Below the pieces are notes generated by a model. It saw only the letters and a program-made list of their open reading frames with translations. It had not been told where the DNA came from and made no database searches. A stretch of 64,000 nucleotides of DNA, from assembly GCA_964581795.1 (NCBI GenBank), contig CAZOPW010000001.1:8359-72358 (forward strand), read 5' to 3'. Below, piece by piece: positions 1,261-25,635 of the stretch. The DNA comes from an uncultured Thermoplasmatales archaeon. Its GTDB lineage: Archaea; Thermoplasmatota; E2; DHVEG-1. Within the stretch, counting starts at the first letter, position 1. Each line of letters starts with the position of its first letter. The translations under genes were made by a program, and so were the position numbers.

Positions 1261-2784
1261 TTAAACTGTTTCTGTTCTTAAGTGATAGTATACATGTGTG
1301 GAATATTTTCCGGCCCATTGACCAAGAGGTATATCACAAGTAAACTCGATGTAATGGCTTTGATCATTTTGACCATTGAATGCTTTTAAAGAATTTGCAG
1401 CATCATCTGTTTCATTATAAAAATTTGGATATAAAGGATCTAAACCATCATCGCCTGCTTCACCAGCATACTTACAAGTACCATTTACTTCATGTGTTTC
1501 ATTTGTCAATGAATTCCCAGTGGTTCCATTACATGTTCCATATAATCCAATCCAGTAGGTTCCAGTTCCTGTATCGCTAAAATTCACCCTACTAGTTCGA
1601 GTTCCACCACGCACCCAAATCGTATTATTATCTAGTATTAGATGAGATGGAGCAGTGTCTAGTGTATAGCTTAGATCTTCAGCTGCTGTGTGTAATAAAT
1701 CATCAATATGCATTACTAAACTGTAATTTCCATTGGATCGAGTGCGAATTGACACATTCTGAGATGTACCACCATTGAATGAATTTGAACTATTTGTTGA
1801 ATATTTCCCACCTGGAGCTCCCTGAATCTCTGCATCACCTGCACTAACGATTTCAGTGTATGAATAAATACCAAATTCATCATTGACCCATGATTTGAAC
1901 GGACCATCAGCATATGTTGATCCATCACCACATTCACCGAAATTTTGAACAGTTACATTTAAATTCCAAGACCATGAGTTATTAAATGCTTCCCAACAAG
2001 TTGTTTCATAATCAAGAATACCCGGTCCATCTGTACTTGGATAACCTCCATCATTTTCAACCGAATAATTAGTCCAGGTATTCCCTGTTCCATCTGGTCC
2101 AGGTGCATATCTGAACTGATAACCTGGTTTAAACTGAAATGTTAAATTATGGGTTTCAGTTGATGAAAGGCCTAGAGTATCACTTACAACTCGTTCAGTA
2201 AAATTACCTTTTGTTAATTCAGTTTGGTTTGTTGGCCACGAAATATTATAATACGGAGTAGTGTTTGATGTGTTATCATAATATAGGAAGAAATTACGAT
2301 TTGATCCATGATTGCCCGAGGTATTATAACCAGTTCCATCGTCATTATCAGTTCCATTGTCATGCCAACCTGTTATATTGATATATTCAATATTATCCCA
2401 GCCTTGATCACTACTAATATTTATGACAAATCGGAGCCAGGTTGCATTATCCACTTCAGTCATATTATTTCTGATTGATACCCAATTATTATCATCATTA
2501 TCTGGAAATGAGGTGTCGTTTTCTGTTTTGACTCCTGTATATCTTTGGATATCATACCATAAAATTCGAGGATATTTACTCTCCACAGTTACATTTAAAT
2601 ACGTGTCATTATGCCAAGCTGAAGCGTTCGTTGAACAATCCTCCCAATTATTCCCTGCTTGCACAATAAACGGTCTTTTCAAAGGCGTGTTTCCAGTAAA
2701 GCTAACAAATGTTGCTGCTATAAGTATAAGGAGAACGAGCGTTGTTATAATCTTTTTTTCCATTATTTTCTTCATATTTTCCAC
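1261..2784 (-). CDS. Secreted, heavily N-glycosylation-sequon-rich cell-surface protein; paralogous to a domain of the 900-aa neighbour
   Basis: N-terminal signal/TM (ITTLVLLILIAATFVSF). More than 30 NxS/T sequons. Shared domain WDNIEYINITGWHDNG... similar to GWSDIDYINIASWYDQG in the 2938..5640 ORF. Hexamer-repeat motif plus TATA upstream. Confidence 0.6.
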   Translation of the reverse strand: MENMKKIMEKKIITTLVLLILIAATFVSFTGNTPLKRPFIVQAGNNWEDCSTNASAWHNDTYLNVTVESKYPRILWYDIQRYTGVKTENDTSFPDNDDNNWVSIRNNMTEVDNATWLRFVINISSDQGWDNIEYINITGWHDNGTDNDDGTGYNTSGNHGSNRNFFLYYDNTSNTTPYYNISWPTNQTELTKGNFTERVVSDTLGLSSTETHNLTFQFKPGYQFRYAPGPDGTGNTWTNYSVENDGGYPSTDGPGILDYETTCWEAFNNSWSWNLNVTVQNFGECGDGSTYADGPFKSWVNDEFGIYSYTEIVSAGDAEIQGAPGGKYSTNSSNSFNGGTSQNVSIRTRSNGNYSLVMHIDDLLHTAAEDLSYTLDTAPSHLILDNNTIWVRGGTRTSRVNFSDTGTGTYWIGLYGTCNGTTGNSLTNETHEVNGTCKYAGEAGDDGLDPLYPNFYNETDDAANSLKAFNGQNDQSHYIEFTCDIPLGQWAGKYSTHVYYHLRTETV

Positions 2785-2937: not shown

Positions 2938-5640
2938 TTAGATACGTTCAATTTTTTTAATAATTCTTGATGAATATGTCCCCCATGTGCCATAAGGTAT
3001 TGAAATCTGAAATTGTACACTTACTGAATCACTCGTTCCCTGACTTGAGGCACTTCTATTCTGTAAAAGAACAATGGCATGTTGTTCTCCACAACCAGCA
3101 AATGTTGTGTTGACAAGAAGATCATCATCAACATCTGCTTCTTTCAAAAGACTAAGATTTCCACCAATCCCTATCTCGTCTGGTCCATTATTTTGAGTGA
3201 GATTATCCACAAAATATATCTTTAATCTAAAATCTGCGTTACTAATAAAATCAATCGTAAATATGTTTGATACTTCATTCATCCCTGGTGCTCCAGTTAT
3301 TTCTATTAATTCTGGTGCTTTTAGAGCTGAGTAATAATTTATACCATATTCATCCAGATAATAATTATAATTTGAAAGGTTATCATAAATTGTACAATTC
3401 AAATTCCATGAATAAGGATCATTATAACTATTTTCAGTATTATTCCATGATTCATTACTTGTTGCACAATGTGTTTGATTTCCAGGTATGAATGAAATAT
3501 TGATAATCCGAGTAGTTTGATTAATGATTTTTTCGGAGCAATTAGTTAGTTGTAGGGTTGATTCATCATCAGGCCATATCATAGTAAACTGACCTGTACC
3601 AGTCGTATTTTTGTATTGGAGGAACATATTATAATTTTCACCTGTAGTTTGGTTATATTCTGAAGTATCATCACCTTGATCGTACCAACTGGCGATATTT
3701 ATATAATCAATATCCGACCACCCATTTCGATCAGTAACATTAATTAAAAAAATATACTCCTTTCCTACATCAAGACAGCCTGTTTGATTATTCAATTTAC
3801 TCCCAGAATTATTCTGTAAATCAAATGAATTAATAACCGGATCAAACTGATGAATAGCAAATGAGAAAGTTTCATTAGTCCAATGCGTTCCATCTGTTAC
3901 ATTTATACTCCACCAATACTTGTGATCAAAAAGAGTTGCCCAAGAAGTATTTGTTACCTGATAAGTTCCATCATTAACTCCGTTTCCAGTTCCATTCGTC
4001 ACATTGAATGTTTCCCAGGTTCCTGATTGATTAGTTCTCCAAGTAATATTCATCAACTCAGGATTTGGATCAAAGATTGTTATCTCAAAGTAAGCTGGTT
4101 TTTTTGGAGTGAAAAAATCTTCATCTGATGGTGATGGATTACTAACTGTTGGAGCTGCACTTTCTTCTTTTTCAAGTTTAATAAAATTGCTTTGGTTAAA
4201 TATTGTGTTATATGAAGTTTTTATCCATGATTGATTTCTTTTCAATGTTGAAAGTCTTAACTCATCAAGTCTTCCCTCAAAAAAATTATCAGGGCTTTCA
4301 CCCTCTTCACCAATTGTAAGGTTATCATTTCCAATGATCGAAATATTACCATATGAAGGCGTTGTTTTGAAGGATTGCTCACCATTGATGTATACACTAA
4401 GATTTGTTCCATTCCCAACTCCAGCTACATGAATCCATGTATCCTGTATAATGGTATTATTAAAAGACTCTGCTATCTTAAATTCTCCATCATGAACAGC
4501 AAACTTGATATTATTCGTAGAAGATTCAAATTTGAGAACATACTGATGCTTTCCGGTTCCTTGCCATCGCCCTATAATGCCTCCATCATGAGTTAAATCC
4601 TGTACATTAATCCATGCAGATAATGTCAATTCATTACCTGTGCCACTGAAATTCAAAGTTGAATCGTATGGAATCAAGATTGAGTCATTATTGCCATCAA
4701 AATCAAATCCACCATTTACAACTGCATCAATATCATCATTTATATCCATACCAGAAGTGGTTCCATTGTTTTTATTTTTTGTACTATCACTAATATCTCC
4801 AACTCCTCCATCAATATCTTCTTCCTCCAAATGATGAATCATTACAAAATTATCATCCCATACCATAGATGGATTTTCTTGAATGCTACTATCGCTATTA
4901 TTATAATACATCCATATACTCGTATTTTCAATTGAACTTAATCTTGGAATTTTTACCCAAGCCGTAAGATTTCCTTCCGAATAGGTTTCGATTTCATGAG
5001 AATATTTTGTTGTATTGTCACTATATGAGACAAACGCTATATCATGACCGTCATTTTCTGCTTTTTGATTTAAATCAGAATCAGATATGTTTATTAAAAC
5101 AGGAAAATCTATGAGGGTACTTTGAACTTGGCTTTTATTTATCTCTATTTTTTTTCTAAAACCCCAATTATTATTCCACCAGTTAGTTGCATCATTATAG
5201 GCATATACCGTTTTGTTTCCAAAAGTAAATTCGAGAACATGTTTTCCAAGAGTATTTACCTTTGATATCTCATATACATCCATTGAAGAACTAAAATTTT
5301 TAATGATGACACAATCATCTTTCCAAAGAGTATCAAAAGTTTCTTTTTCATTTCTTATTGAATTAAAAAGGAGATCACAGGTAGAACATTTATGTTTACT
5401 CCAAGTAGTGCCTTCCACAGCTCGAATTGAAAGATCCGCGGTTCCTTCGACCGTAAATGTAACTGTCCAATAGCCACCTTTTTTTGGATAACTTTGAATA
5501 TTTATTATTCGAATTGAAGGTTTTATTTCCTCAGCCTGGGTTGAAAAAAATGATGGAGAAACATAAAAATGAATTGAAAGACTAAGCAAACTGAAAAATG
5601 CTAGTACACAAACGATTTTGTTAACCCATCGTTTTTCCAT
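2938..5640 (-). CDS. Large secreted surface protein with concanavalin-A/LamG-like lectin domain and sequon-rich repeats
   Basis: Signal peptide (IVCVLAFFSLLSLSIHF). LamG-like signature region DGNNDSILIPYDSTLNFSGTGNELTLSAWINVQDLTHDGGIIGRW. Many NxS/T sequons. C-terminal part paralogous to the 507-aa neighbour. Confidence 0.6.
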   Translation of the reverse strand: MEKRWVNKIVCVLAFFSLLSLSIHFYVSPSFFSTQAEEIKPSIRIINIQSYPKKGGYWTVTFTVEGTADLSIRAVEGTTWSKHKCSTCDLLFNSIRNEKETFDTLWKDDCVIIKNFSSSMDVYEISKVNTLGKHVLEFTFGNKTVYAYNDATNWWNNNWGFRKKIEINKSQVQSTLIDFPVLINISDSDLNQKAENDGHDIAFVSYSDNTTKYSHEIETYSEGNLTAWVKIPRLSSIENTSIWMYYNNSDSSIQENPSMVWDDNFVMIHHLEEEDIDGGVGDISDSTKNKNNGTTSGMDINDDIDAVVNGGFDFDGNNDSILIPYDSTLNFSGTGNELTLSAWINVQDLTHDGGIIGRWQGTGKHQYVLKFESSTNNIKFAVHDGEFKIAESFNNTIIQDTWIHVAGVGNGTNLSVYINGEQSFKTTPSYGNISIIGNDNLTIGEEGESPDNFFEGRLDELRLSTLKRNQSWIKTSYNTIFNQSNFIKLEKEESAAPTVSNPSPSDEDFFTPKKPAYFEITIFDPNPELMNITWRTNQSGTWETFNVTNGTGNGVNDGTYQVTNTSWATLFDHKYWWSINVTDGTHWTNETFSFAIHQFDPVINSFDLQNNSGSKLNNQTGCLDVGKEYIFLINVTDRNGWSDIDYINIASWYDQGDDTSEYNQTTGENYNMFLQYKNTTGTGQFTMIWPDDESTLQLTNCSEKIINQTTRIINISFIPGNQTHCATSNESWNNTENSYNDPYSWNLNCTIYDNLSNYNYYLDEYGINYYSALKAPELIEITGAPGMNEVSNIFTIDFISNADFRLKIYFVDNLTQNNGPDEIGIGGNLSLLKEADVDDDLLVNTTFAGCGEQHAIVLLQNRSASSQGTSDSVSVQFQISIPYGTWGTYSSRIIKKIERI

Positions 5641-5859
5641 CTTAATCCACCAATGATATTCATTTTTGCGAGGAGGATTATGTAAAAATCAATAATGACC
5701 AGTACAATAGGGTCGTCAATAAAATCTTCCAGTTAACACTGTTTACATTGAGTAACAATTACTAATTGGTTGTACCCATCTAAACCCATCCTCGTTAAGA
5801 ACTCAATTGGTGCTAGATTATTTAAACCTTACGTCAAAATATATTGTAAATAAAAAAAA

Positions 5860-7641
5860 TTAAACTTCATTAAATGTTGCAATTTCAGCTCTTTCACCCT
5901 GAAAATCACCTGTTTTTACATTTACTTTAACTGGTATCTCATTTTCTTCCTTTGAAAGAAAAACGGTATGATATGAAGCGTCATCAACACCTTTTAACCG
6001 ATTCATATAATGTTGTTCTACACCTGGTAAGCCAGAGGGCCCAACAAAATCAACCAAGTGTTTCCCAACTAGTTCATCTTCAGAATAGCCCAGCATTTGG
6101 GCAAATCGTTTATTAGCCTTTTTAATGCGCCCACGTTGGAGAACTGCAGCTTCTACAGTTAAAGAATTAAACAAATCATCTTTTTCTAAAATGCCTTCAT
6201 CTTTTTCAGATTCGGGGTTTTCTTGTTCAGGTTGATGTGTGTAGGAGGCGGGTTGTTCTAATTCATGTGTTAAAACTTTGTCATATTGTTCATTGAGAAA
6301 TGCTTCCTGTTCTGAAAGAAATTGCCTTCTTTTTTCAATTTCTTCCTCAAGTTTTTCTAGTTTTTCTCGCCAGGTGATAAATTCCTCAATTTTATGTTTA
6401 AATTCCTTTTTTTCTAGAATCATATCCGCTTCAAGTTGTTCGAGTTTGTGTTTTCTATCTGATAATTGCTGCATCATTTGTTGAAATTCTTCTCGCTTTT
6501 TTTTAATCGCTACACTGTCTCTAATAAATCTGAATTTGGAATTGAAAAAGGTTTTAATTTCATTTCTTTTAAATTGAGCGTAACTTAGTTTTTTCTCAAG
6601 TTTATCATTTTCTTTTTTTAATTTTTTATTTTCTTTTTTAAGTTTCTTTATTGTATCTTTTAAAGAATTTGAAGTTTCTTTTTTCTTTTTATCTTTCTTT
6701 AATCCTTTTTTACCATCTGATAAATTTTCTTTTTTTACTAAACGGGGGAGAAGAAATCGGTTCTTTGATTTTTCTTTATTTTTTGGTAAAAGAGTTGAAA
6801 ATCGATTTTTAATATCTAGGTTTGTTTTCTTCGTTGATTCTTCAGATATTTCATTATTAGATTGATCTAATTCCTCTTTAGTTGATTCTGTTGATTTATC
6901 ACTTGATTTTTCTTTGTTTGTTTTTGATTTTTTTGTTCTTTTTTTAATTTTAATTTTTTTCTTTGTTTTTTTTGCTGAATGGTTGTTGGATGTTTCTTTT
7001 TTCTTCCTGTTTGATGATTTTGAAGTTTTTTTAGGTTTCTCTTTGCTTTCTGTTTTTTCCTTTTTAGATGATTTTATCTTATCGCTTTTTTGGTTTGATG
7101 AATTTTCGATATCCTTTTTGGGATGATCATTTGTGCTTTTTTCTTCTTTTTGCTCCTTTTGAGATGTTTTCTGTTTTCTATCTTTATTTGTTGAAGAGGG
7201 GTTTTTTTTAGATAAAGTCGATTTTTTTTTCGGATTTGATTTCTTTTCTTCAGCTGTATTAACATCATTCAATGGAGTACCAACAAGATTCAATTGAGAT
7301 ACTCTACCATCCTCTTCGTTTTTTATTGGAAAGCCGGTCCAAGAAACCACCATTTTTTCTCCATGTGCAGTTTGAAAAGAAGTATCTATATCTACAGAAT
7401 CAGGACTGAATCGAGCTTGGTTAACAAGTTTTTGAAGTTCTTCTGCTGGTATTTGCTTAGAAAAATAAGTTGAAAATGGAACGTCAAGGACCTCTTTTTT
7501 TGATGACCCTGTGAGTTGCTCTAATGTGTCATTAAATCGTGTGATATTCCCTTTTTTATCGATTCCTACAACTAAAGTTGATCCCTGATGTAATGGATCA
7601 GTGTCACGTATGTAAATAGGCCTCTCCATCTTTCTGTTCAT
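5860..7641 (-). CDS. Dual PAS-domain protein with ~230-aa lysine/serine/glutamate-rich low-complexity linker and coiled-coil segment
   Basis: N-terminal PAS-like region (LVVGIDKKGNITRFNDTLEQLTGSSKKEVLD...). Central KKxK-rich disordered region. Heptad-like LKKENKKLKKENDKLEKKL. C-terminal PAS-like region (GRIKKANKRFAQMLGYSEDELVGKHLVDFV). Divergent from the flaC operon. Confidence 0.6.
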   Translation of the reverse strand: MNRKMERPIYIRDTDPLHQGSTLVVGIDKKGNITRFNDTLEQLTGSSKKEVLDVPFSTYFSKQIPAEELQKLVNQARFSPDSVDIDTSFQTAHGEKMVVSWTGFPIKNEEDGRVSQLNLVGTPLNDVNTAEEKKSNPKKKSTLSKKNPSSTNKDRKQKTSQKEQKEEKSTNDHPKKDIENSSNQKSDKIKSSKKEKTESKEKPKKTSKSSNRKKKETSNNHSAKKTKKKIKIKKRTKKSKTNKEKSSDKSTESTKEELDQSNNEISEESTKKTNLDIKNRFSTLLPKNKEKSKNRFLLPRLVKKENLSDGKKGLKKDKKKKETSNSLKDTIKKLKKENKKLKKENDKLEKKLSYAQFKRNEIKTFFNSKFRFIRDSVAIKKKREEFQQMMQQLSDRKHKLEQLEADMILEKKEFKHKIEEFITWREKLEKLEEEIEKRRQFLSEQEAFLNEQYDKVLTHELEQPASYTHQPEQENPESEKDEGILEKDDLFNSLTVEAAVLQRGRIKKANKRFAQMLGYSEDELVGKHLVDFVGPSGLPGVEQHYMNRLKGVDDASYHTVFLSKEENEIPVKVNVKTGDFQGERAEIATFNEV

Positions 7642-7767
7642 ACTCGTTTTCGTTAAAATTTCCCTATCCGTTTTCAGGTATACTCAATTTAATACTTATT
7701 TTAATACTTTTTGTTATTATGTGAGTCAAAGTTCCAATTTCATTTACTTAATAATGTTTTTATAGGG

Positions 7768-7791: not shown

Positions 7792-7824
7792 GATCGCTAG
7801 GAGGGGTATCCGATTAAGCTAAAG

Positions 7825-8574
7825 ATGGGAAAATCTGATAGTGCATCAGCTGACACTTCTGACAAGGAGAAAGAAGCACCAACTGAAGATGCTTCAAAGG
7901 CTGATAAGAATGCTGAACAACCTGAAGAGGATGTTGAAAATCTTCGTAAAGTGATAAAGCTTAATGATAATGCTAACGAAGATAAGAAATCTGATGAATC
8001 AAAAAAAGACAACGAGCAAGACGAAGATGATGTAGATGGAATTGATGATTTAGTTGAAGAAGCTGAGGAAGAAGGAACTGCAGCTCCTGCATCAACACGA
8101 GAGGAACTTGAACAAAAAAGAGCGATTTTACAACGTATTAAGGATTTTGATTTTCAAATTAAAAAGAACCAACAAGATATTAATGCTGTAGGTGAAAAAA
8201 TAGCAGCATTATCAAAGGATTTGGATGATCTTGTCAGTTTATATGAAATTGTTTCTGAACAAATGAATCCTTTTGTCGGTCTATCTAAGGTTACGAAAAA
8301 AAGATTGGAATCATTGGAGAATATTACAAATGAAGTTGATACGTTAAAAGAAAAACTATCAACAATCGAGGCAGGTGGTTCTATTCAAACTTTAAAACAA
8401 GAACAACCTTCGACCATCGAACCAAGCTTTGAAATGGATTTATCCGATCAGGAGATGGAAAGAATTATTGAACTGTCATTTTCAGAACTAAATCCTGAAT
8501 TAAAGGTTGAAACCACAATTGATGATGCAATTGATGTTTTTATCGAAAATTTAAAAGCCGGGAAGGTAAATTAG
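7825..8574 (+). CDS. flaC: Archaellum accessory protein FlaC-like (acidic coiled-coil)
   Basis: First gene of the flaCDEFGHIJ-type operon. Very acidic N-terminus and coiled-coil region. Synteny with flaD/E, flaF, flaG, flaH, flaI, flaJ. Confidence 0.6.
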   Translation: MGKSDSASADTSDKEKEAPTEDASKADKNAEQPEEDVENLRKVIKLNDNANEDKKSDESKKDNEQDEDDVDGIDDLVEEAEEEGTAAPASTREELEQKRAILQRIKDFDFQIKKNQQDINAVGEKIAALSKDLDDLVSLYEIVSEQMNPFVGLSKVTKKRLESLENITNEVDTLKEKLSTIEAGGSIQTLKQEQPSTIEPSFEMDLSDQEMERIIELSFSELNPELKVETTIDDAIDVFIENLKAGKVN

Positions 8575-8584: not shown

Positions 8585-9475
8585 ATGAGTGAGGATAAAA
8601 AGGAAGGTGGACAGCCTGATGCTACTGATTTTGATTTACAATTAGAATTATCTTCTTTAGTAGCAGACCAAGTTATTCCACAGTCTATTGCTGAGAAGCT
8701 TGAAAAAAAACTTGTTGAAAAACAAGTTGATATTACAAAAGATCAATTATATGCACTTGCTGAGAAAATCCATAATTTAATTCAAACGTATAAAGAAAAA
8801 GGTTCTTTACCTGAACCAACTAGTTCTACAGATTCTGTTAAACCTAATAAACAACAAGATAATGATTCAAATGATGAATCAAAAGATTCATCTTCATCTC
8901 GCTTTGAGGGGGAGATAGATGATGAAACTATTGAAGGATTTATGAGCAAGATTGGACAATTACAACAAAAAATCGATGAATTAGAACAACAAGGTATACA
9001 AGGTGAAGTAACTGATAAAAATCAGCCTTCATCATATAATGATATTAATCTACCGTATAATGAGCCTATTTCGACAAGTCATTTAATTACGGATCCATTG
9101 CAAAATATTCCATCTAATCCAGAGAGTATTATCGTATTAATGAACTGGCTTCAATATCTGGTGAATAGATGTGGTCATGATAATTTAGCTAATGTTTTAG
9201 ATTATTATGTTGAAGTTGATTGGATAACAGACGATGTTAAAATTAGTTTACTCGAATATGCTACAGGTATTACAGAGGGGAATAATTTAAAATCCGATAC
9301 TTCAAATAAAGGTGATGGGAAAAGTTCTAATCTTCATTCTAAAGATCATATTCAATCATATTTATACATTCAACGTCTAAAAGGAAAGAAATTTGAAAAA
9401 CATTTTGTAGAGAGAATTAATGGGGAACTTGCTCGTATTGAAAAAAAGGTTGACACCTATCATCATACACAATAA
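8585..9475 (+). CDS. flaD: Archaellum accessory protein FlaD/FlaE family
   Basis: C-terminal conserved FlaD/E-type domain (IIVLMNWLQYLVNRCGHDNLANVLDYYVEVDWITDDVKISLLEYATGI). Position between flaC and flaF. Confidence 0.65.
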   Translation: MSEDKKEGGQPDATDFDLQLELSSLVADQVIPQSIAEKLEKKLVEKQVDITKDQLYALAEKIHNLIQTYKEKGSLPEPTSSTDSVKPNKQQDNDSNDESKDSSSSRFEGEIDDETIEGFMSKIGQLQQKIDELEQQGIQGEVTDKNQPSSYNDINLPYNEPISTSHLITDPLQNIPSNPESIIVLMNWLQYLVNRCGHDNLANVLDYYVEVDWITDDVKISLLEYATGITEGNNLKSDTSNKGDGKSSNLHSKDHIQSYLYIQRLKGKKFEKHFVERINGELARIEKKVDTYHHTQ

Positions 9476-11260: not shown

Positions 11261-12892
11261 ATGACTAAGATGGATTCAGATGAGGAAAAACAATTAATTG
11301 AAAATAATCCGCATTTGAAAAAATATATTGATAACATCTCCTTGAAAATGAGTAAACCAACGTTTTATGTAAAAATTCCAAAAGAGGAAAAAGAAAATAA
11401 ATTCCCTAATCTTATTTATCCTACAAAAGGAATAGTATTTATCCATATGTATAGGACTCCAGAAATGGAGCAAATTGAATATCATGCAGTTGAACCAAAA
11501 TTAACTAATGATCAAATAAAAAAGCGTAATGCAGTTCTTGAACGAATGTATGAAAAAGCTCATTTTTATGCAAATATCAAAAGTCCTGACGATTTAAGAA
11601 AAGCTATCAGTACACTACTTGATAATATAACAGTAGTTGATGAATCAGCAACTTCACTTGATGAAGAAAAAAAAAGAGGGAAAATTAGGTTAACAAGTGA
11701 AGATAAAATCGCGATTAAATATGATATAACAAAAGAAATCATTGGTGGAGGACCACTTGAACCATTAATGCGTGATCCCAATATCGAAGATATACATATT
11801 TTAACAGGCGAAGATGTTCATTTAATCCATAAAGTGTTTGATTTAGTCCGAACTAATATTTACATTGATCCGAATTGGGCAAATTCTTTTTCCCAAGATT
11901 TCAGTGAAAAAATTGGAAGTCCCGTTAGTGACGGTGTACCAATCGCTGATGGCACACTTCCAGATGGAAGTCGTGTCAATATTATCCATCCAAATGATGT
12001 TAGTTTAAAAGGACCAAGTATGACGGTTCGAAAATTTAGTGAAACACCGATAAGTATCACGCAAATCATTAATTGGGGGACGATGAGTAGCTACATTGCT
12101 GCATATATTTGGATTGCTGTTCAATATGGAAGAAGTTTTTTTGTGTGTGGTGAAACAGCATCCGGAAAAACAACGACAACAAATGCAGTTATTCCCTTTA
12201 TTCCCCCAGATAGAAAAATTTACTCAGCGGAAAACACTCCTGAAGTTCAAGTGCCTCATCCTGTTTGGCAGCAATTACTTACAAGGACAACTGGGCCAAA
12301 AGAAAGCCATGTTGATTTAAACGATTTATTAAAAGCAGCATTACGATCTCGTCCAAATTATATTATACCTGGTGAAACCAGAGGCATCGAAGGACGAGTA
12401 GTGTTTCAAGCGATGCAAACTGGCCACCCTTGTATCACTACATTTCACGCTGGATCAGTAACAAAAGTTATCCAACGATTTACTGGTGATCCAATTCGTA
12501 TCCCTAAACCTTTCATGGACAATCTTGATTTTGTTATCATTCAGTTAGCAGTTGACAGAAAAGGAAAACGATTACGGCGAGTGATTTCTGTTGATGAAAT
12601 AGAAGGATATAATTCAGCTGTGGATGGTGTGATTACACGGAAAGCGTTCGAATGGAATTCCGCTTCAGATCAACATATGTTTAAGGCAAATCGAAATAGT
12701 TACATTTTAGAAGATCGTATTGCAAAGACTGCAGGATATGAAAATCCAACTGAAATTTATGATGAGCTTGATTTGCGGAAGCGGATTTTAGATCGAATGA
12801 TTGAAGAAAAAATCTTTGATTATTATGAAGTCGTTCAATTTATTTGGACGTATTTTAGAGAAGGCGTTGATGGTCTTCCAATAACCATATAA
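11261..12892 (+). CDS. flaI: Archaellum assembly/motor ATPase FlaI (type II/IV secretion ATPase superfamily), paralog 1
   Basis: Walker A GETASGKTTTTNA; conserved SFFVCGETASGKTT and RSRPNYIIPGETRG regions; 543 aa. Confidence 0.85.
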   Translation: MTKMDSDEEKQLIENNPHLKKYIDNISLKMSKPTFYVKIPKEEKENKFPNLIYPTKGIVFIHMYRTPEMEQIEYHAVEPKLTNDQIKKRNAVLERMYEKAHFYANIKSPDDLRKAISTLLDNITVVDESATSLDEEKKRGKIRLTSEDKIAIKYDITKEIIGGGPLEPLMRDPNIEDIHILTGEDVHLIHKVFDLVRTNIYIDPNWANSFSQDFSEKIGSPVSDGVPIADGTLPDGSRVNIIHPNDVSLKGPSMTVRKFSETPISITQIINWGTMSSYIAAYIWIAVQYGRSFFVCGETASGKTTTTNAVIPFIPPDRKIYSAENTPEVQVPHPVWQQLLTRTTGPKESHVDLNDLLKAALRSRPNYIIPGETRGIEGRVVFQAMQTGHPCITTFHAGSVTKVIQRFTGDPIRIPKPFMDNLDFVIIQLAVDRKGKRLRRVISVDEIEGYNSAVDGVITRKAFEWNSASDQHMFKANRNSYILEDRIAKTAGYENPTEIYDELDLRKRILDRMIEEKIFDYYEVVQFIWTYFREGVDGLPITI

Positions 12893-12921: not shown

Positions 12922-14598
12922 GTGGACTTGTTGGCTGATGACGACAAAATGACTGAGGAAGAAATTCAAGAATTGATTGATAAACATCCTCATCTTCAAA
13001 CATATTTAAAAAATATTGAAGTAAAGATGAAACGGCCTGAGTTTTTCAAAAAAATTCCGAAATCCAAAGAAAGTGAAGAATTTCCAAATCTAATTTACCC
13101 AACAAAAGGATCAGTTTTTATTCACATATACCGGCTTCCTGAAATGGATGAACGTATTTATCAGTCTATTGAACCTGAACTTGATGATGAAGCGGAAAAA
13201 AAATTCAAAGATATGTTGAAGATAATTGTAAAAAAAGCACCAGAGAAAAAAAGTGCTGTTTCTGACGATGAATTAAAAGAAATTTTTATTGAACTTATGA
13301 ATGAAATCATCGAGATTGATGAAAACGCATACTCTTATGAACCATTAGAAAAGAAAGGGTTGTTTAACAAACAGAAAATGGCAACAAAGATTAAAGCTAC
13401 TTCACCGCAAAAAGAAGCAATGAAATATTCTCTTATTAAGGAACAAATTGGTGGGGGACCACTAGAACCCTTTATGCGAGATATCTACTTGGAAGATATT
13501 CATATTATTGCTGGCGAAAATGTGCACGCAATTCATAAAGTATTTGATATGATTAAAACAAATATTTTGATTCCAAAAGAAGAATCATTTGTTTTTGCTC
13601 GGAAATTAAGTGAAAAGATGGGTGCTGCAGTAAGTGAAGCTCAACCAATTGTAGATGCTACGATGCCAGATGGCAGTCGAGGAAATTTAATTTATCCTGA
13701 ATCAGTAAGTATTAAAGGACCAAGTATTACTATTCGTAAATTTGCCGAAACCCCGATAAGTATCACGCAAATCATAAATTGGGGAACATTAAGTAGTGGA
13801 ATTGGAGCATATCTTTGGCTTGCATTACAATACGGGAGAAGTTTTTTTGTTTGTGGGGAAACCGCATCGGGAAAAACAACGACAACTAATGCAGTCATCC
13901 CATTCATACCTCCAGATAAAAAAGTTTACACTGCAGAAAATACTCCAGAACTTCATGTTCCTCATACTGTATGGCAGCAGTTATTAACTCGAACCGCAGA
14001 TACAGAAGAGGGGAGTGTTGACTTATTCGATTTATTAAAAGCAGCATTACGATCTCGTCCCGACTATATTATCCCCGGTGAAACTCGTGGTGCTGAGGGA
14101 AGTGTTGTTTTTCAAGCGATGCAAACTGGCCACCCTTGTATCACTACATTTCACGCTGGATCAGTAACAAAAGTTATCCAACGATTTACCGGCGATCCAA
14201 TCAATGTTCCAAAATCATTTATGGACAACCTTGATTTTGTGTTAATTCAAATGGCTGTGGAACGGAAAGGTCAACGTCTTCGTCGAGTACTTTCAGTTGA
14301 TGAAATCGAGGGATATAACAAAGCAGTCGATGGAGTAATGTCTCGGACTGCATTTGAATGGAAATCTGCTGAAGATCAACACCTGTTTCGAGCGAATAGA
14401 AATAGTTACATGCTTGAAGAACGCATTGCAAAGACTGCCGGTTATGAGGATCCCGCTGAAATTTATGAGGAATATGAATTACGCAAACACATCCTTGATA
14501 GAATGGTGGAAGAACAAATTTTTGATTACTACGAGGTATGTCAATTCATTTGGACTTTTTATCGAGAAGGGATTGAAGCTTTACCCATTTCGATTTAA
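12922..14598 (+). CDS. flaI: Second tandem FlaI-family ATPase paralog (558 aa)
   Basis: Same architecture and Walker A (GETASGKTTTTNA). About 60% identity to paralog 1 with a divergent N-terminal third. Contains an 80-bp stretch 100% identical to paralog 1 (14110..14189 vs 12404..12483). Confidence 0.8.
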   Translation: MDLLADDDKMTEEEIQELIDKHPHLQTYLKNIEVKMKRPEFFKKIPKSKESEEFPNLIYPTKGSVFIHIYRLPEMDERIYQSIEPELDDEAEKKFKDMLKIIVKKAPEKKSAVSDDELKEIFIELMNEIIEIDENAYSYEPLEKKGLFNKQKMATKIKATSPQKEAMKYSLIKEQIGGGPLEPFMRDIYLEDIHIIAGENVHAIHKVFDMIKTNILIPKEESFVFARKLSEKMGAAVSEAQPIVDATMPDGSRGNLIYPESVSIKGPSITIRKFAETPISITQIINWGTLSSGIGAYLWLALQYGRSFFVCGETASGKTTTTNAVIPFIPPDKKVYTAENTPELHVPHTVWQQLLTRTADTEEGSVDLFDLLKAALRSRPDYIIPGETRGAEGSVVFQAMQTGHPCITTFHAGSVTKVIQRFTGDPINVPKSFMDNLDFVLIQMAVERKGQRLRRVLSVDEIEGYNKAVDGVMSRTAFEWKSAEDQHLFRANRNSYMLEERIAKTAGYEDPAEIYEEYELRKHILDRMVEEQIFDYYEVCQFIWTFYREGIEALPISI

Positions 14599-16424: not shown

Positions 16425-17081
16425 CTATAAATCAATAATTGTTTCTGTATAAGTTGAAGGGGTTGTGAAATCAAAAATTGCTGATATTCCTTGTTCAGGA
16501 ACGATTTTTCCCGAAACTGAGGATCTTGGTGCTATCCCTTCAAAACAAGCAGTTGTATTAACCAAAATACCAATCAGATCATTTCGATTTATGGAAGGAG
16601 TATCAACAGTGCAACTATTATCATTATCTCGAATTACTAAAACACCAAACTCCGTATTGCTTAAATTGCTCGTATTCAATGTTTGAAACAATCCATTTGT
16701 CACAGTTGTAGAAAAACTCTCATTATCAAATAAAAGAATTGGCATTTTTTGAGAATCAGATATTTGAAGACGTGCTTCACTTAAATCAATTGCTTCAGAT
16801 CCTGCAGTTGTTTTAACAAAAAAACAAAGCTGGGCGATCGATTCATTTGAAACATAACCACTCACATGAGTTAATCTCAGACCAGATGAAATATCTTTTA
16901 TTGTTTCCTGGCTTGTCTGCAATGCTTGTTGTTGCATAGAGTCCATTGTTTGAAATACAACAGATGCAGCAACTCCCGCGGAAATAATCATAGCAATAAA
17001 AATAATTAATGATCCAATTCCAATTGAAGCATGATCTTCAGTAGAGAACACACCCCCAGAGTATACTATTACCTTTCTCAC
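16425..17081 (-). CDS. flaB: Archaellin (FlaB family), 218 aa, divergent paralog
   Basis: Class III signal peptide / archaellin N-terminus HASIGIGSLIIFIAMIISAGVAASVVF. Confidence 0.85.
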   Translation of the reverse strand: MRKVIVYSGGVFSTEDHASIGIGSLIIFIAMIISAGVAASVVFQTMDSMQQQALQTSQETIKDISSGLRLTHVSGYVSNESIAQLCFFVKTTAGSEAIDLSEARLQISDSQKMPILLFDNESFSTTVTNGLFQTLNTSNLSNTEFGVLVIRDNDNSCTVDTPSINRNDLIGILVNTTACFEGIAPRSSVSGKIVPEQGISAIFDFTTPSTYTETIIDL

Positions 17082-17273
17082 CTCCTAGCAATGATGTGAG
17101 TGGTTCAATTAACTTATTTTAAGAACCCATCCAATGAGAAGGTAATACAGTAAGCAGGTTATAAATCTATGGTTAAAACAAAAAATAGAACAATAAAAAA
17201 AAATGAAAAAAATCAAAAGGAGGGATGTTTTTTCCAATCTCTTAAAAAGAGAGTGGAAGAAATGACATCTCTC

Positions 17274-18018
17274 TATTATTGTAGTTTATAGATTTGATCA
17301 ACGTATGTCATTGGTGTAGTAAACGAAATCACACCAGGTGACCCAATCTCAGGAATCACACGACCAAACACATCTGTTCGTGGTGGAAGTTGTGCATCAA
17401 ACAAATATGAAGTATTTGTACAAATATACAAAATCGCTTTATCCCCACGATTCAACACGGGATTACTCGCAGTAATCGAACTATCTTCATCCTGCAACAC
17501 ACCAATCGCAAACGTTTCAGCACCAGTCGTATTCCAATGATCTTCACCAATATCAAACATATCACCAGTCACATCACCAACAAAGGAAATATTGCCATCA
17601 CCAGTATCTGTCGCATTAGTATAGTTATAACGTACCAATGATTTTGTAGCACCGTTACTAATCAAGATATAAGTATTATTCAGATCGATATCATCCGAAC
17701 CTGGTCGAACCTTCACCACAACAGCAAGCCGAGACAAATTCTCAAGCTCAGTACTATTGGATTCATTTCGAACCCATCCAGAAACCTCAAAAACAGAAAT
17801 ACCACTACTCACCTCTTTCCGAGTTTTCTGGCCAGTACTCAACGCCTGAATCTGCACGGTATTGCTTGTAGAAACCAAAACCGATGCAGCAATACCTGCA
17901 ACCAAAACCATTGCAATAAACACAATCATTGCACCAATACCAATAGCAGCTTCATGATCTCGAATAAAATTCTTAACAAACATTCTCATTTCTATTCACC
18001 TCCTTATTGCAACTCCAT
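17274..18018. repeat. 745-bp perfect direct repeat, copy 1 (covers flaB-237 gene plus junction to the upstream archaellin gene)
   Basis: Nucleotide-identical to 19933..20677 by direct comparison of both ends and of the encoded proteins. Confidence 0.85.
17276..17989 (-). CDS. flaB: Archaellin (FlaB family), 237 aa, copy 1 of an identical pair
   Basis: AAIGIGAMIVFIAMVLVAGIAASVLV N-terminus. Protein 100% identical to the 19935..20648 ORF. Confidence 0.9.
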   Translation of the reverse strand: MRMFVKNFIRDHEAAIGIGAMIVFIAMVLVAGIAASVLVSTSNTVQIQALSTGQKTRKEVSSGISVFEVSGWVRNESNSTELENLSRLAVVVKVRPGSDDIDLNNTYILISNGATKSLVRYNYTNATDTGDGNISFVGDVTGDMFDIGEDHWNTTGAETFAIGVLQDEDSSITASNPVLNRGDKAILYICTNTSYLFDAQLPPRTDVFGRVIPEIGSPGVISFTTPMTYVDQIYKLQ

Positions 18019-18699
18019 TACATCATCAATATAAGAAGCGGGGGTTGTAAAACCAACAATTCCTGGTGAACCTTCCTCACAGACGACAATACCAGATACA
18101 TCAGTTCTTGGAAGTAATCCACCAAATACTTCGTCTGTATTTATTCCTAAAATCACGTGATCTCCAAAATTAATAATTGGATTGTCTCTTGTGCATGAAT
18201 CATCAGCATCATTTAAAACAATTACACTGAATGAATTTGCACTACCATATGTGCCACTGCCAAATACATCTCCGTTTACATTCGAAGAGTTAGTGTATGT
18301 ATCATCTGATCTCTCGTATGCTAATATATATTTCTCTGATGAATCTGATATTTCAATTATTGTTTCATGTAAATCAATATCTGGAGATCCTGCTTTTGAA
18401 GTTATCTCTATAGCCATTTTATCAATTGAACCAGAAGTATTATGACCTTCAATAGCTTCAACTTTCAATCCACTTGCTACTTCTGCGATAGTCTCCTGAC
18501 CAGTTTTTAACGCCTGCATTTCCAACCGCGTACTTGTTTGGATAAGTACAGATGCGGCAATACCTGCCACAAGAACCATGGCAATAAAAATAATCATTGC
18601 ACCTATCCCAATTGCTGCGGTATCTATCTTTAAATTCTTTCCTAATTTTCTACATCCCATCATCGGAACATCCCTCCTAAAAGTTACGTCTTGTAACAA
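18004..18699 (-). CDS. flaB: Archaellin (FlaB family), 231 aa
   Basis: AAIGIGAMIIFIAMVLVAGIAASVLI N-terminus; close paralog of 20663..21319. Confidence 0.9.
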   Translation of the reverse strand: MLQDVTFRRDVPMMGCRKLGKNLKIDTAAIGIGAMIIFIAMVLVAGIAASVLIQTSTRLEMQALKTGQETIAEVASGLKVEAIEGHNTSGSIDKMAIEITSKAGSPDIDLHETIIEISDSSEKYILAYERSDDTYTNSSNVNGDVFGSGTYGSANSFSVIVLNDADDSCTRDNPIINFGDHVILGINTDEVFGGLLPRTDVSGIVVCEEGSPGIVGFTTPASYIDDVMELQ

Positions 18700-18775
18700 T
18701 TAGGTTGTTTCTATCAACAATAAAACAAACGGTCTTATTATACCTTTTTTTTAGATAGCAATACAAGTGTTAAGG

Positions 18776-18799
18776 CAAATGCATATGCATATGAATATG
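18776..18799. promoter_or_regulatory. Tandem hexamer array (CAAATG CATATG CATATG AATATG) abutting TATA box of the 18699 archaellin promoter
   Basis: Same 6-bp periodic CANNTG-type repeat family. TATA-like GGTATAATAAG immediately downstream (gene strand). AGGAGGG SD before the ATG. Confidence 0.5.
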
Positions 18800-18858
18800 T
18801 TAAAAATCAAGAAATGAATTTTGTCTTGTTATAAAAAGGGTAAATATAGAGTCAATTG

Positions 18859-19843
18859 TGTAGTACGAATATTATTTCGTTTTTTCTTTTTCATATTTTC
18901 AACTCCATAAAATATCCTAAAAGACAACTTGGATCTAATTTTCTCATCAATGCCTCTGCAGGGTTCTCTCCGATCTCTAACCAGAGAGATCCATGTAACC
19001 GATGGTTATACCATTGAAGGAATTCTTCAATGGTGTCAAAACGCCATCGGTGCTTATCATATTCAAACCAGAATCGTTCCACTTTCCCATTGGTTTGAGG
19101 ATTATTCCTGCGAGAGGGAACAAAGTTGATATCATTTTGTTCCAGGAATTCCTGAAATTGTGATTTGCTCTTCGGATGATTTGAGTAAAACTGGGTACCT
19201 CGATCCGTGTTCACATCCTTGATGAATGCATGAAACAGATGACTGTGATCAATCACCTTTTGAAAAGTATCAATACTATGCCTTGCAGTTGCTTCAGGAT
19301 ACTCTGCTCCATGAAAGATGTATCGTGATGCATCATCCATCCAGACAATGGCATGTGGATGATCCACTGAGGTACGATGCCAGTCACCATGGATCAATGA
19401 AAAACTATGATCACGTTCATACCGGCGACGTTTCCGTTTCTTCTGTTTATTCGGATTTGGAATCGTTCTTTTCTTCTTCAGGAAATACTTATGGATCTTA
19501 TGATGTGGAATATGATGCCCTCTTCGTTTCAATTCATGAAAAAGAAGACGAGCTCCGAACCGTGTTTCCTACCAACTTGATCAATGATCTCCTTTTCCGT
19601 TGGAGTAAGTGGTTTTCCTCTTGGTCGTCTCCTCGGGTTCAAACAGGGAGGTTTTCCTGTTTTGCTTATATTCCTTTACTAATTGCTGAATCCTCCGGAT
19701 GCTTACTTCATAATGTCGAGCTAATCGTTCTGTGGTCCAATCTTTATCTTCCACTGCATGTTTGCAGATGTTCCTTATTTTCTTGTCTGTAAGCTTTGTC
19801 ACATCAGCATGTAATCTAAAGCGAAATAATTTTCATACTCTAC
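18859..19843 (-). mobile_element. IS481-like insertion sequence (~985 bp) inserted between the duplicated archaellin units
   Basis: rve/DDE-type transposase ORFs. Imperfect terminal inverted repeats: TGTAGTACGAATATTATTTCG at 18859..18879 versus the reverse complement of GCGAAATAATTTTCATACTCTACA at 19821..19843. Confidence 0.6.
18891..19802 (-). pseudogene. IS481/IS3-like DDE (rve) transposase with N-terminal HTH, interrupted by two in-frame stops
   Basis: HTH segment (TTERLARHYEVSIRRIQQLVKEY). rve motifs TDRGTQF and NPQTNGKVERF. The two ORF pieces are in the same frame, separated by TGA (19581..19583) and TAG (19569..19571). Confidence 0.6.
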
Positions 19844-19932
19844 AAAATATAGAATCAATAAAAAAAGATTTAAAGAAATAAAAAAGTGAAGGGTTCCAAA
19901 AGGATTGGTTTCGGAGTGCCCTTTTTTCAATT

Positions 19933-20677
19933 TATTATTGTAGTTTATAGATTTGATCAACGTATGTCATTGGTGTAGTAAACGAAATCACACCAGGTGA
20001 CCCAATCTCAGGAATCACACGACCAAACACATCTGTTCGTGGTGGAAGTTGTGCATCAAACAAATATGAAGTATTTGTACAAATATACAAAATCGCTTTA
20101 TCCCCACGATTCAACACGGGATTACTCGCAGTAATCGAACTATCTTCATCCTGCAACACACCAATCGCAAACGTTTCAGCACCAGTCGTATTCCAATGAT
20201 CTTCACCAATATCAAACATATCACCAGTCACATCACCAACAAAGGAAATATTGCCATCACCAGTATCTGTCGCATTAGTATAGTTATAACGTACCAATGA
20301 TTTTGTAGCACCGTTACTAATCAAGATATAAGTATTATTCAGATCGATATCATCCGAACCTGGTCGAACCTTCACCACAACAGCAAGCCGAGACAAATTC
20401 TCAAGCTCAGTACTATTGGATTCATTTCGAACCCATCCAGAAACCTCAAAAACAGAAATACCACTACTCACCTCTTTCCGAGTTTTCTGGCCAGTACTCA
20501 ACGCCTGAATCTGCACGGTATTGCTTGTAGAAACCAAAACCGATGCAGCAATACCTGCAACCAAAACCATTGCAATAAACACAATCATTGCACCAATACC
20601 AATAGCAGCTTCATGATCTCGAATAAAATTCTTAACAAACATTCTCATTTCTATTCACCTCCTTATTGCAACTCCAT
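19933..20677. repeat. 745-bp perfect direct repeat, copy 2
   Basis: Identical to 17274..18018; offset 2659 bp. Confidence 0.85.
19935..20648 (-). CDS. flaB: Archaellin (FlaB family), 237 aa, copy 2 of the identical pair
   Basis: Protein identical to the 17276..17989 ORF. Confidence 0.9.
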   Translation of the reverse strand: MRMFVKNFIRDHEAAIGIGAMIVFIAMVLVAGIAASVLVSTSNTVQIQALSTGQKTRKEVSSGISVFEVSGWVRNESNSTELENLSRLAVVVKVRPGSDDIDLNNTYILISNGATKSLVRYNYTNATDTGDGNISFVGDVTGDMFDIGEDHWNTTGAETFAIGVLQDEDSSITASNPVLNRGDKAILYICTNTSYLFDAQLPPRTDVFGRVIPEIGSPGVISFTTPMTYVDQIYKLQ

Positions 20678-21319
20678 CCAAGCATCAATGTATGATGCAG
20701 GAGTAGTAAAACCGACAATTCCTGCTGCACCTTCTTCACATATAACTAATCCAGATACATCAGTTCTTGGTAATAAACCACTGTTTACTGTAAAGACTGA
20801 ACTTGTATCAATGCCTAAAATAACGTGGTCTCCATCATTTATTACAGGTGTTGTACTTGTGCATGATTCATCAGCATCTTGCAAAACTGTAATTCCAAAC
20901 GCAGTTGAGGATCCCCAAGCTCCATTAGTAGATAGGTCTCCATCAATCGATGTTGAGTTTTTATAATCAGATCCATAACCGAGTACATATTTGTTTGTTG
21001 AATCGGATATTTCAATTATTGCCTGTTCTAAATCTATATCTGGAGCGCCTGCTTTTGGTCTAATTTCAATTGCCATTTTGGTAATTTTACCTGAAGCATT
21101 GTATCCTTCAACACCTTCAACAGTAATACCTGAGGATACTTCAGCGATTGTTTCTTGACCCGTTTTTAATGCTTGCATCTCTAAACGTGTACTTGTTTGC
21201 ACCAGCACCGATGCAGCAATTCCAGCAACAAGAACCATGGCGATAAAAATTATCATGGCTCCGATACCAATTGCTGCCATATTTTTTCTATTTGTAAGGT
21301 ATTTAGTCTTTCGTCCCAT
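20663..21319 (-). CDS. flaB: Archaellin (FlaB family), 218 aa, first gene of the array
   Basis: AAIGIGAMIIFIAMVLVAGIAASVLV N-terminus. Strong AGGAGGGGTAAT SD 12 nt upstream. TATA and hexamer array further upstream. Confidence 0.9.
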   Translation of the reverse strand: MGRKTKYLTNRKNMAAIGIGAMIIFIAMVLVAGIAASVLVQTSTRLEMQALKTGQETIAEVSSGITVEGVEGYNASGKITKMAIEIRPKAGAPDIDLEQAIIEISDSTNKYVLGYGSDYKNSTSIDGDLSTNGAWGSSTAFGITVLQDADESCTSTTPVINDGDHVILGIDTSSVFTVNSGLLPRTDVSGLVICEEGAAGIVGFTTPASYIDAWMELQ

Positions 21320-25133: not shown

Positions 25134-25478
25134 ATGCACGAGCCGGATAATGAAAATATTTCAGCAGAGGTAAAGCGCCCTTTGGTAGTTCGGGCGTTAC
25201 GCAGAAGTAACGTACGAAAAAAGATAGCAGAATATCTTTTTGATATTAGTCCAAGTTATAGTTATACTTCTGAAATAGCCTATCATGTAAAAACGACTCC
25301 AACTAATGTGATAGGAGCTATTAGAGGGATGAAATCACGATATCGAGAGGATGAGTCATTAATAGGACTTGATCTTATCGAAGAAAGGAAGGGCGGATCA
25401 AACATTAAACTCTATGGTCTTACTCCTTTTGGAAAAGAGATTCTAGAGTCAATGTTAAAGGAGAAAAATAATCGTTAA
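25134..25478 (+). CDS. Small winged-helix transcription regulator (114 aa)
   Basis: wHTH-like core (IAEYLFDISPSYSYTSEIAYHVKTTPTNVIGAIRGMKSRY). Positioned between the archaellin and che clusters, with the hexamer array in its own promoter. Confidence 0.55.
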   Translation: MHEPDNENISAEVKRPLVVRALRRSNVRKKIAEYLFDISPSYSYTSEIAYHVKTTPTNVIGAIRGMKSRYREDESLIGLDLIEERKGGSNIKLYGLTPFGKEILESMLKEKNNR

Positions 25479-25635
25479 AGATGGCTATTTTATACTGCCA
25501 TCGCTTTATTTTTAAAATAGAAATCCTCACTGCATTTTAAAATCAATGATTAAAAAAAGAAATATAAAAAAAGATGGTATGATACTTCTTGAGTAAGTCG
25601 TGTTGCATTATCCAAAAGAAGAGAAATATTTTTAT

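Follow-up and report, generated by a model that had tools for sequence, protein, structure and literature searches.

The 64,000-nucleotide stretch of DNA considered here (the window; positions 8,359 to 72,358 of contig CAZOPW010000001.1, assembly GCA_964581795.1, from an uncultured Thermoplasmatales archaeon) carries, divergent from the archaellum gene arlC, a gene for a protein with a PAS domain at each end and, between them, a lysine-rich linker and a coiled coil. This PAS protein is probably an undescribed regulator or accessory part of the archaellum motor. A more specific reading, to which the synteny of its gene and the conservation of its sequence together give a little less than an even chance, is that it would be a coiled-coil PAS adaptor binding the cytoplasmic complex formed by ArlC, ArlD/E and ArlH.

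A PAS gene paired with arlC

The gene, the signals around it and the two archaellum genes nearest to it are the following (window coordinates).

5860..7641, minus strand: the whole gene (PAS, disordered linker, coiled coil, PAS), from the list of open reading frames and its translation; 593 amino acids, ATG start
5848..5859, minus strand: T8-containing tract directly 3′ of the stop codon, read from the sequence; candidate archaeal terminator
7699..7714, minus strand: ACAAAAAGTATTAAAA, candidate A-rich transcription factor B recognition element and TATA element for the PAS gene, about 57 nt upstream of the ATG; kept in close relatives
7800..7807, plus strand: GGAGGGGT, 18 nt ahead of the arlC start codon; forms the core of the conserved GGAGGGGTAC-type leader element
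7825-8574, plus strand: arlC (Pfam FlaC_arch), first gene of the archaellum operon and proposed partner
8585-9475, plus strand: arlD/E (Pfam Arch_fla_DE), proposed partner

The PAS gene and arlC lie on opposite strands with 183 bp between their start codons. When the window proteins were compared by tblastn with 28 related loci, and contigs were consulted for five more distant members, the PAS gene was found head-to-head with arlC in every one of the 24 independent loci that have upstream DNA, in addition to the window, at protein identities down to 27% (the other eight loci end no more than 370 bp from the start of the PAS gene). In these loci arlC is followed by arlD/E-F-G-H-I-I2-J, and the set includes members found by a profile of the helical region alone. 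The pairing with arlC is the sole constant, since downstream neighbours vary between clades: close relatives have LamG/DUF2341 genes there and distant ones a convergent archaellin gene, so that in the latter the PAS gene sits inside the archaellum cluster. A reading made earlier from the sequence alone (the sequence-only reading) had described the gene as divergent from flaC, that is arlC, and had suggested an input to motility control; the divergent arrangement is borne out, the relatives do lie next to such loci, and the link to motility is strongly supported by their synteny.

Some departures from the common arrangement are also pertinent. In one locus of 27% GC (L026, 2976-10373) the PAS gene is separated from arlC by 2.1 kb; another PAS-helix paralogue, a partial one, lies downstream of arlD/E, and arlF-J are missing from the 20 kb examined. 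In another (L029, 13870-15919) the other neighbours of the PAS gene are a Volactin/MreB-like actin gene and a CdpA_N gene, both of the cytoskeleton and cell-shape type.

With a promoter-like motif before it and the T8 tract after it, the PAS gene appears to be a transcription unit of its own. ACAAAAAGTATTAAAA presumably acts as its promoter, and the T8 tract, as a candidate archaeal terminator, would make it monocistronic. The hexamers AAAAGT and AAGTAT occur in 20-21 of 23 intergenic regions, where 8-9 would be expected. The core hexamers of the GGAGGGGTAC-type element are more strongly enriched (20 of the 23 regions, with 0.8 expected) and occupy an equivalent position in related loci; the element is longer, and farther from the ATG, than a plain ribosome-binding site would require. 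Sites for EarA (TACATA) were considered for the shared intergenic region and rejected, the hexamer being unenriched over the 23 loci (11 against 8 expected), with a single copy adjoining the arlC TATA in the window. The true start of the PAS protein may be Met5, at 7629, as several homologues begin at its equivalent (‘MERP...’).

Two PAS domains and no output domain

From N- to C-terminus the protein is divided as follows.

7267..7584, minus strand: N-terminal PAS (aa 20-125); Pfam PAS_9 and PAS above threshold, AlphaFold2 model, profile match to the RpfR PAS domain 6dgg
6682..7266, minus strand: poly-lysine/serine region, predicted disordered (aa 126-320) and specific to the window's clade; from composition, model confidence and the absence of a Pfam match
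6928..6963, minus strand: short basic-hydrophobic motif KKKIKIKKRTKK (aa 227-238) within that linker; recurs in most linkers
6535..6681, minus strand: helix 1 (aa 321-369), a leucine zipper whose Leu residues are spaced by heptads; AlphaFold2 helix, single register over 321-368
6256..6531, minus strand: helix 2 (aa 371-462), modelled at block-mean confidence of 77-93; with the C-terminal PAS the most conserved part
6181..6255, minus strand: short acidic linker, predicted disordered (aa 463-487); net charge -7 over aa 471-495, confidence below 50 at 464-485
5863..6180, minus strand: C-terminal PAS (aa 488-593), reaching the C-terminus of the protein; Pfam PAS_3, PAS_4 and PAS_8, TIGR00229, AlphaFold2 model

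The N-terminal domain is matched over aa 22-114 by Pfam PAS_9 (68.8 bits) and PAS (47.3 bits), both over their gathering thresholds, and by profile comparison it matches the PAS domain of RpfR (6dgg, E=1e-5). Over aa 502-557 the C-terminal domain is matched by PAS_3, PAS_4 and PAS_8, again over the Pfam gathering scores, and the NCBIfam model TIGR00229 hits the protein in two stretches. An AlphaFold2 model built on an alignment of 35 family sequences gives both folds with good block-mean confidence (predicted local distance difference test score, pLDDT, 81-88 over aa 21-120 and 81-90 over aa 491-593), and its secondary structure fits the PAS fold, for which a five-stranded antiparallel sheet with flanking helices is expected. 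Foldseek comparison of the model with the PDB returned PAS domains only, with a target-normalised TM score of up to 0.82; the PAS domain of an HTR-like protein of Haloarcula marismortui (3bwl) was among the best. PAS-like folds at both ends had already been proposed, and profile thresholds, model and fold comparison all agree with that assignment. The protein belongs to the PAS superfamily, and it is of coiled-coil type as well. Sequence and fold searches of the PDB otherwise yielded generic PAS matches, with no hint as to the helix or a ligand.

The earlier remark that the protein is without an enzymatic output domain also stands. No output domain of any kind was detected in the window protein with Pfam and NCBIfam at E<=0.01, permissive thresholds on the isolated middle segments included. 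HisKA/HATPase_c, GGDEF and EAL are absent from it at that threshold and from the families listed for 94 members of its family; HAMP and the MCP signalling domain (PF00015) are absent from the window protein and the 94 members; and no helix-turn-helix (HTH), winged helix-turn-helix, ribbon-helix-helix or other DNA-binding domain was found in either. FlaC_arch, Arch_fla_DE, CheF and the EarA winged-helix domain (PF07381) were tested for in the window protein and are likewise absent.

The coiled coil and the distribution of constraint

Helices 321-369 and 371-462 are modelled with block-mean pLDDT of 69-93, and two heptad registers can be followed, over 321-368 and 377-452, with 62-75% of a/d positions hydrophobic. 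The first of these includes the leucine zipper that the sequence-only reading had picked out; the coiled coil is thus real and much longer than had been noted (about 140 aa, 321-462). Invariant residues of helix 2 in the 35-sequence alignment include W424, K427, L428, E432, E434, I435, R438 and R439. Identity to the window protein differs greatly by region, as given here for its own (near) clade and for the distant clade.

N-terminal PAS: near 69%, distant 26%
Disordered tract: near 20%, distant 6%
Leucine zipper: near 52%, distant 29%
Hinge: near 56%, distant 9%
Helix 383-460: near 79%, distant 38%
Acidic linker: near 46%, distant 5%
C-terminal PAS: near 81%, distant 41%

Judged by these identities, helix 383-460 and the C-terminal PAS are the best-conserved and most constrained parts, and this pattern, with its invariant charged and aromatic positions, would fit a binding surface.

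A second AlphaFold2 model, of a distant member and from an 82-sequence alignment, shows the same beads-on-a-string layout: PAS (pLDDT >93), disordered segment, 50-aa helix, disordered segment, 74-aa helix (pLDDT >91), disordered segment, PAS. Since in two independent models the confident PAS domains and helices are separated by low-confidence linkers, the PAS domains are presumably not rigidly coupled to the helices. Classical allostery from the N-terminal PAS through the helix is therefore unlikely, and regulated binding fits better.

A small family of Thermoplasmatota

A word-indexed search retrieved 38 relatives, mostly of 525-628 aa, and when one genome per GTDB species was scanned, 28 loci came to light, all of them in metagenome-assembled genomes titled Thermoplasmatota, Thermoplasmata, Thermoplasmatales or the broader Euryarchaeota/Methanobacteriota; to the Arl proteins of two of these, those of the window are up to 92% identical, which makes it most likely that the window belongs to that lineage. 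A profile of the helical region only (aa 326-466), run against 1.84 billion representative proteins, gave 100 matches at E<=1e-3, nearly all of them in the middle of proteins of 400-700 aa. As such a profile retrieves essentially just one family, of about 95 clusters among those representatives, the helix is family-specific and not a generic coiled coil. One match (P0118; 1014 aa, lacking PAS and in an unrelated neighbourhood) was set aside as a coiled-coil false positive. A Pfam scan of 94 members found PAS in 91, and an enzymatic, MCP or DNA-binding domain in none.

Neither Pfam nor NCBIfam has a model dedicated to this combination, and a small, unnamed family, the archaellum-locus PAS-helix-PAS proteins of Thermoplasmatota, is proposed. 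It would be recognised by an N-terminal PAS, a variable linker, a helix with W-R-E-K-L...E-I-E-K-R-R, a C-terminal PAS and a position divergent from arlC, all of which the window protein has. The domain combination had been called unusual for archaea, and this can be kept if it is taken to mean a small family that, where its members are named, is confined to metagenome-assembled genomes of Thermoplasmatota type. In the literature searched in full text, which included a recent census of archaeal type-IV-filament systems and a comprehensive review of archaeal motility, no PAS protein is described at an archaellum locus, though the family may have been mentioned elsewhere.

The lysine-rich linker

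What first strikes the eye in the protein is its linker. Residues 126-330 are 30% K and 15% S with an isoelectric point of 10.1 and a net charge of +37, and hydrophobic residues make up 12% of the linker; K averages 7.5% in the window's other 36 open reading frames of 200 aa or more, and the highest K count per 100 aa is 36 in the PAS protein against no more than 19 in any of them. With pLDDT below 50 throughout 126-321 (26-30 in most blocks), aa 126-320 are predicted to be an intrinsically disordered polybasic region. A K/S-rich disordered region of about 230 aa had been noted; its presence and disorder are upheld, while its length is closer to 195-205 aa.

The underlying 585 nt are 57% A and 26% GC, with 49 AAA codons against 11 AAG. 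There is no in-frame stop where about 15 would be expected (none of 2000 shuffles was free of stops, and the other two frames have 6 and 22), which marks the linker as coding sequence that has been maintained, and as neither a spacer nor an artefact of assembly. The possibility that the K-rich stretch is an assembly or annotation artefact, absent from relatives, was entertained from the outset and is rejected on the strength of the open frame together with conservation: the region is present in all 37 near-clade homologues of the alignment. Their linkers are mostly of 185-243 aa (two have 99 and 157 aa), with 18-36% K and net charges of +15 to +61, so that K-rich composition and positive charge are kept even though sequence identity is 20%. 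With 12 runs of at least 7 A, the window gene has a tract prone to slippage or to homopolymer sequencing errors; in one locus (L003, 4848-6583) the homologue is split over two frames within the A-rich linker.

Among the sequences compared, the poly-lysine tract is confined to the window's clade. Most distant members have linkers of about 105-185 aa with net charges of -10 to +8, two family members have linkers of just 35-40 aa, and a small intermediate group (P0035-37, L017) has a 109-aa linker of net +21 to +24. AT bias as the only cause of the lysine richness is ruled out by comparing clades of similar GC content (37-39%), at which linker K is 25% in the near clade and 11% in the distant one; in the genome poorest in GC (27%) the linker is short and its net charge zero. 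The earlier suggestion that the poly-lysine region is the functional core, whether for binding nucleic acid or as a scaffold, is not sustained, for distant members keep both the PAS-helix-PAS architecture and the synteny with arlC without it. What recurs more widely is the motif KKKIKIKKRTKK, which near-clade proteins carry as KKKIKIKR and the majority of distant members as VKKI(L/M)FAREKK. Its pLDDT is about 40 at most in the model of the window protein, and the second model, from the deeper alignment, leaves the motif unplaced against any domain (pLDDT there 35-42).

A proposed mode of action

As the PAS protein has neither an enzymatic nor a DNA-binding output, contacts with other proteins would have to be its way of acting. 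In Haloferax volcanii the CheY-CheF signal reaches the motor at ArlCE and ArlD, which are docked there by way of ArlH (PMC7534055). By the adaptor reading, the heptad helices (aa 321-462, about 20 nm if fully extended) would form a coiled coil, most simply a parallel dimer, and the conserved face of helix 2 (aa 383-460), the C-terminal PAS or both would dock on the ArlC/ArlD-E ‘switch’ assembly or on ArlH at the base of the motor. The PAS domains, on their flexible linkers, would bind an intracellular ligand or a partner, and this binding would adjust assembly, rotation or switching, side by side with the CheY-CheF input encoded at the same locus. The linker carries the short basic-hydrophobic motif and, in the window's clade, would have expanded into a polybasic tail of +20 to +60; motif and tail would most plausibly act as a tether, either to anionic lipids of the membrane or to the acidic, disordered parts of ArlC and ArlD/E. 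Dimerisation, docking partner, ligand sensing and the role of the tail are steps that we infer. That the gene has a promoter-like motif and a T-tract of its own suits a regulator better than a stoichiometric structural subunit, to judge from the sequence around it.

Several points weigh against this adaptor. With CheF, CheY and an MCP already encoded, an extra input is not required. A divergent placement beside an operon is also typical of transcription regulators. No homology of the helix to ArlC or ArlD/E was found (BLASTP against the window's own proteins, E>0.5). As to sensing, no cofactor signature (LOV Cys, heme His on the F-alpha helix, PYP Cys) is conserved in either PAS across the family, and neither domain has an invariant Cys or His: H544 is replaced by Tyr in the distant clade, and where the N-terminal PAS of the distant clade has a Cys, near-clade proteins have Leu. 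The redox, light or ligand input suggested by the sequence-only reading is accordingly speculative, although a ligand may yet be bound. Charge co-variation, finally, was tried as evidence for a partner and does not discriminate. Net charge in the window's clade is -23 to -35 for ArlC and -10 to -35 for ArlD/E (-33 and -21 in the window), and in the distant clade about -7 to -16 and about -2 to -8. The net charge of the PAS protein anticorrelates with those of ArlC (rho -0.43) and ArlD/E (rho -0.61) in samples that are phylogenetically non-independent, and the controls ArlH (rho -0.67) and ArlI (rho -0.58) follow the same trend. The trend thus indicates no specific partner; near-clade Arl proteins are more acidic overall.

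A bolder version would have the protein as a lineage-specific archaellum input not recognised before, a coiled-coil PAS sensor seated directly on the ArlC/D/E switch ring and governing rotation or assembly independently of CheY-CheF. Its near-clade polybasic tail would enter a fuzzy electrostatic complex with the acidic disordered regions of ArlC and ArlD/E or with the anionic membrane, by which the protein would be enriched at the base of the motor. This must be counted a long shot.

Other explanations

A role in expression of the archaellum operon is the alternative that fares best, though it is unlikely. The PAS protein would then bind the 183-bp intergenic DNA or arl mRNA in bZIP-like manner, or would sequester or activate a factor such as the EarA-like protein, in the style of NifL-NifA. 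A divergent and separately promoted gene beside an operon is the classic arrangement for a regulator, an EarA-like gene is present in the same locus (25134-25478), the charge of the tail (+37) would suit nucleic acid, and a basic stretch directly precedes four heptad-spaced Leu residues, where there is a weak match to bZIP_1 (E=0.035). However, at 14.6 bits that match falls short of the cut-off (27.6) and extends over the zipper alone (profile positions 31-57), the basic stretch is unconserved, and bZIP-like DNA binding was rejected on these grounds. The distant clade has neither basic stretch nor polybasic tail and yet keeps the synteny, while the strongest constraint is on helix 2 and the C-terminal PAS and on no basic segment. 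That no DNA-binding domain is found in the window protein or the 94 members also counts against such a role, as does, with lesser weight, the presence of a dedicated EarA-like regulator.

Improbable to a further degree is a structural scaffold or polar organiser that would tie motors to the membrane or to a structure resembling a polar cap, with the PAS domains as interaction modules that do not sense. For ArlCE and ArlD, binding to unknown factors at the pole has been suggested, and what the polar cap consists of is likewise unknown (PMC7534055). The long heptad helix with its disordered spacer, laid out as beads on a string, and PAS domains in which no cofactor signature is seen would be in keeping with such a role. 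Against it, the gene looks to be transcribed separately from the structural operon, and two well-conserved PAS domains are more typical of signalling proteins. Further, the helix profile finds the family in no other context, the named contigs all being metagenome-assembled genomes of Thermoplasmatota type; as polar caps have been described in Thermococcales (PMC7534055), this cannot be a general polar-cap protein.

That it is an ordinary PAS signalling protein in a neutrally inherited neighbourhood, its lysine tract being low-complexity drift in an AT-rich genome, is already disfavoured and very improbable, for although the tract is indeed AT-rich and poorly conserved in sequence, the arrangement persists over the 24 independent loci while downstream neighbours change, lysine content differs between clades of similar GC with a short neutral linker in the 27%-GC genome, and the frame is kept open despite the stops expected.

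The surrounding motility locus

Beyond arlC and arlD/E the window continues as follows.

starts 9513, plus strand: arlF
starts 10050, plus strand: arlG
starts 10526, plus strand: arlH
11261-12892, plus strand: arlI, T2SSE ATPase
12922-14598, plus strand: second arlI paralogue, T2SSE ATPase
starts 14618, plus strand: arlJ
16425-21319, minus strand: five archaellin genes
25134-25478: EarA-like regulator (EarA domain PF07381, 90 bits)
25636-34005: che cluster with cheR, cheD, three cheC, cheA, cheB (two receiver stretches), cheY and cheF
35152-37641: dCache-HAMP-MCP protein (MCP domain, 154 bits)
2938-5640 and 1261-2784, minus strand: large proteins with signal-peptide-like N-termini, downstream of the PAS gene; Laminin_G_3/DUF2341, one carrying both domains

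The MCP gene is followed by cheW, a GHKL ATPase gene and a gene for a CheW-REC protein, the region from EarA to the end of che spanning 25134-40685. The window thus amounts to a single large locus for motility and taxis, and the PAS gene lies at its edge. Thermoplasmatota were reported to be without chemotaxis systems in a survey (PMC9680633), with which the complete che system of this lineage contrasts. That system, with its CheF and MCP, also rules out the notion of a Che-less lineage in which the PAS protein replaces chemotaxis; given the EarA-like regulator and the full che cluster, the protein is no substitute for it.

The two proposed partners each have an acidic segment: the N-terminal 90 aa or so of ArlC are strongly acidic and of low complexity (7825-8100, plus strand), and ArlD/E has an acidic, Ser/Asp-rich central stretch (~8790-9060, plus strand). 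The tandem arlI genes are 64% identical, both with an intact Walker A motif (GETASGKTT), and every related locus that extends far enough has the same duplication. No description of it was found in the literature searched, where the matches were unrelated. Two neighbouring archaellin genes (17276-17989 and 18004-18699) recur as a pair at 19935-21319; the DNA of the two copies is 88% identical over 1364 bp, and two of the products are 100% identical. The copies flank an open reading frame for an rve integrase of insertion-sequence (IS) type at 18891-19532, which suggests an IS-associated segmental duplication.

Laminin_G_3/DUF2341 proteins are encoded also in close relatives and in more distant loci (L029, 16314-19421; L037, 11801-18391). 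In L037 the protein has 2196 aa, and its gene begins 81 bp downstream of the PAS gene on the same strand. These may be surface proteins associated with the archaellum.

Comparison with known systems

The closest analogues of the proposed mode of action are ArlC, ArlD, ArlE and CheF, likewise cytoplasmic and without an enzymatic domain. ArlC/D/E pass signals to the motor, ArlC contains a coiled coil, and their genes are in the archaellum locus (PMC7534055). In contrast, these proteins are without PAS and have no detectable similarity to the PAS protein, and the window encodes its own ArlC, ArlD/E and CheF besides. PAS taxis receptors (Aer-type or soluble MCPs and haloarchaeal Htr transducers) share the use of PAS as an input to motility control; however, a protein without a HAMP or MCP domain cannot feed CheA/CheW arrays in the usual manner.

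EarA and the ArnR, ArnA and ArnB proteins of Sulfolobus are, like the PAS protein, the products of non-structural genes, some of them close to the arl locus. Their domains (winged helix-turn-helix, HTH with membrane anchor, FHA and vWA) are unrelated to its own. Control of archaellation by EarA in Euryarchaeota and by ArnR/ArnA/ArnB in Sulfolobus is established (PMC10665913, PMC6396743). With eukaryotic bZIP and bHLH-PAS factors there is resemblance only, in the succession of basic stretch, zipper and PAS, the profile match being below threshold and the basic stretch not conserved.

Polybasic tails that target membranes are known from the C-terminal region of K-Ras and the effector domain of MARCKS. 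These share with the present tract lysine-rich disordered segments with interspersed hydrophobic residues, as in the KKKIKIKKRTKK motif. The tract here is far longer (about 200 aa) and has no lipid anchor, and membrane binding by it is hypothetical. Bacterial UPF0242-type proteins pair PAS_12, a C-terminal PAS-like domain, with a coiled coil and are not known to have an N-terminal PAS or an archaellum context. Nine members of the present family also match Pfam PAS_12 (best E=1.2e-6), which probably reflects only the PAS fold.

Significance

To our knowledge, the list of archaellum regulators is short, with the Che-CheF-ArlCDE route, EarA, CsmR and the Arn network of Sulfolobus. The lineage being uncultured, experiments on the PAS protein would have to be heterologous. 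Clades with and without the poly-lysine tail offer a natural comparison for what long polybasic disorder adds to a motor-associated protein. The main interest, however, is not the tract itself but the small, unnamed PAS-helix-PAS family tied to arlC. Kept beside that gene across deep divergence, with two sensor folds and no output domain, it is a concrete candidate for a signal input that reaches the motor directly and not by way of Che, or else for a scaffold associated with the motor.

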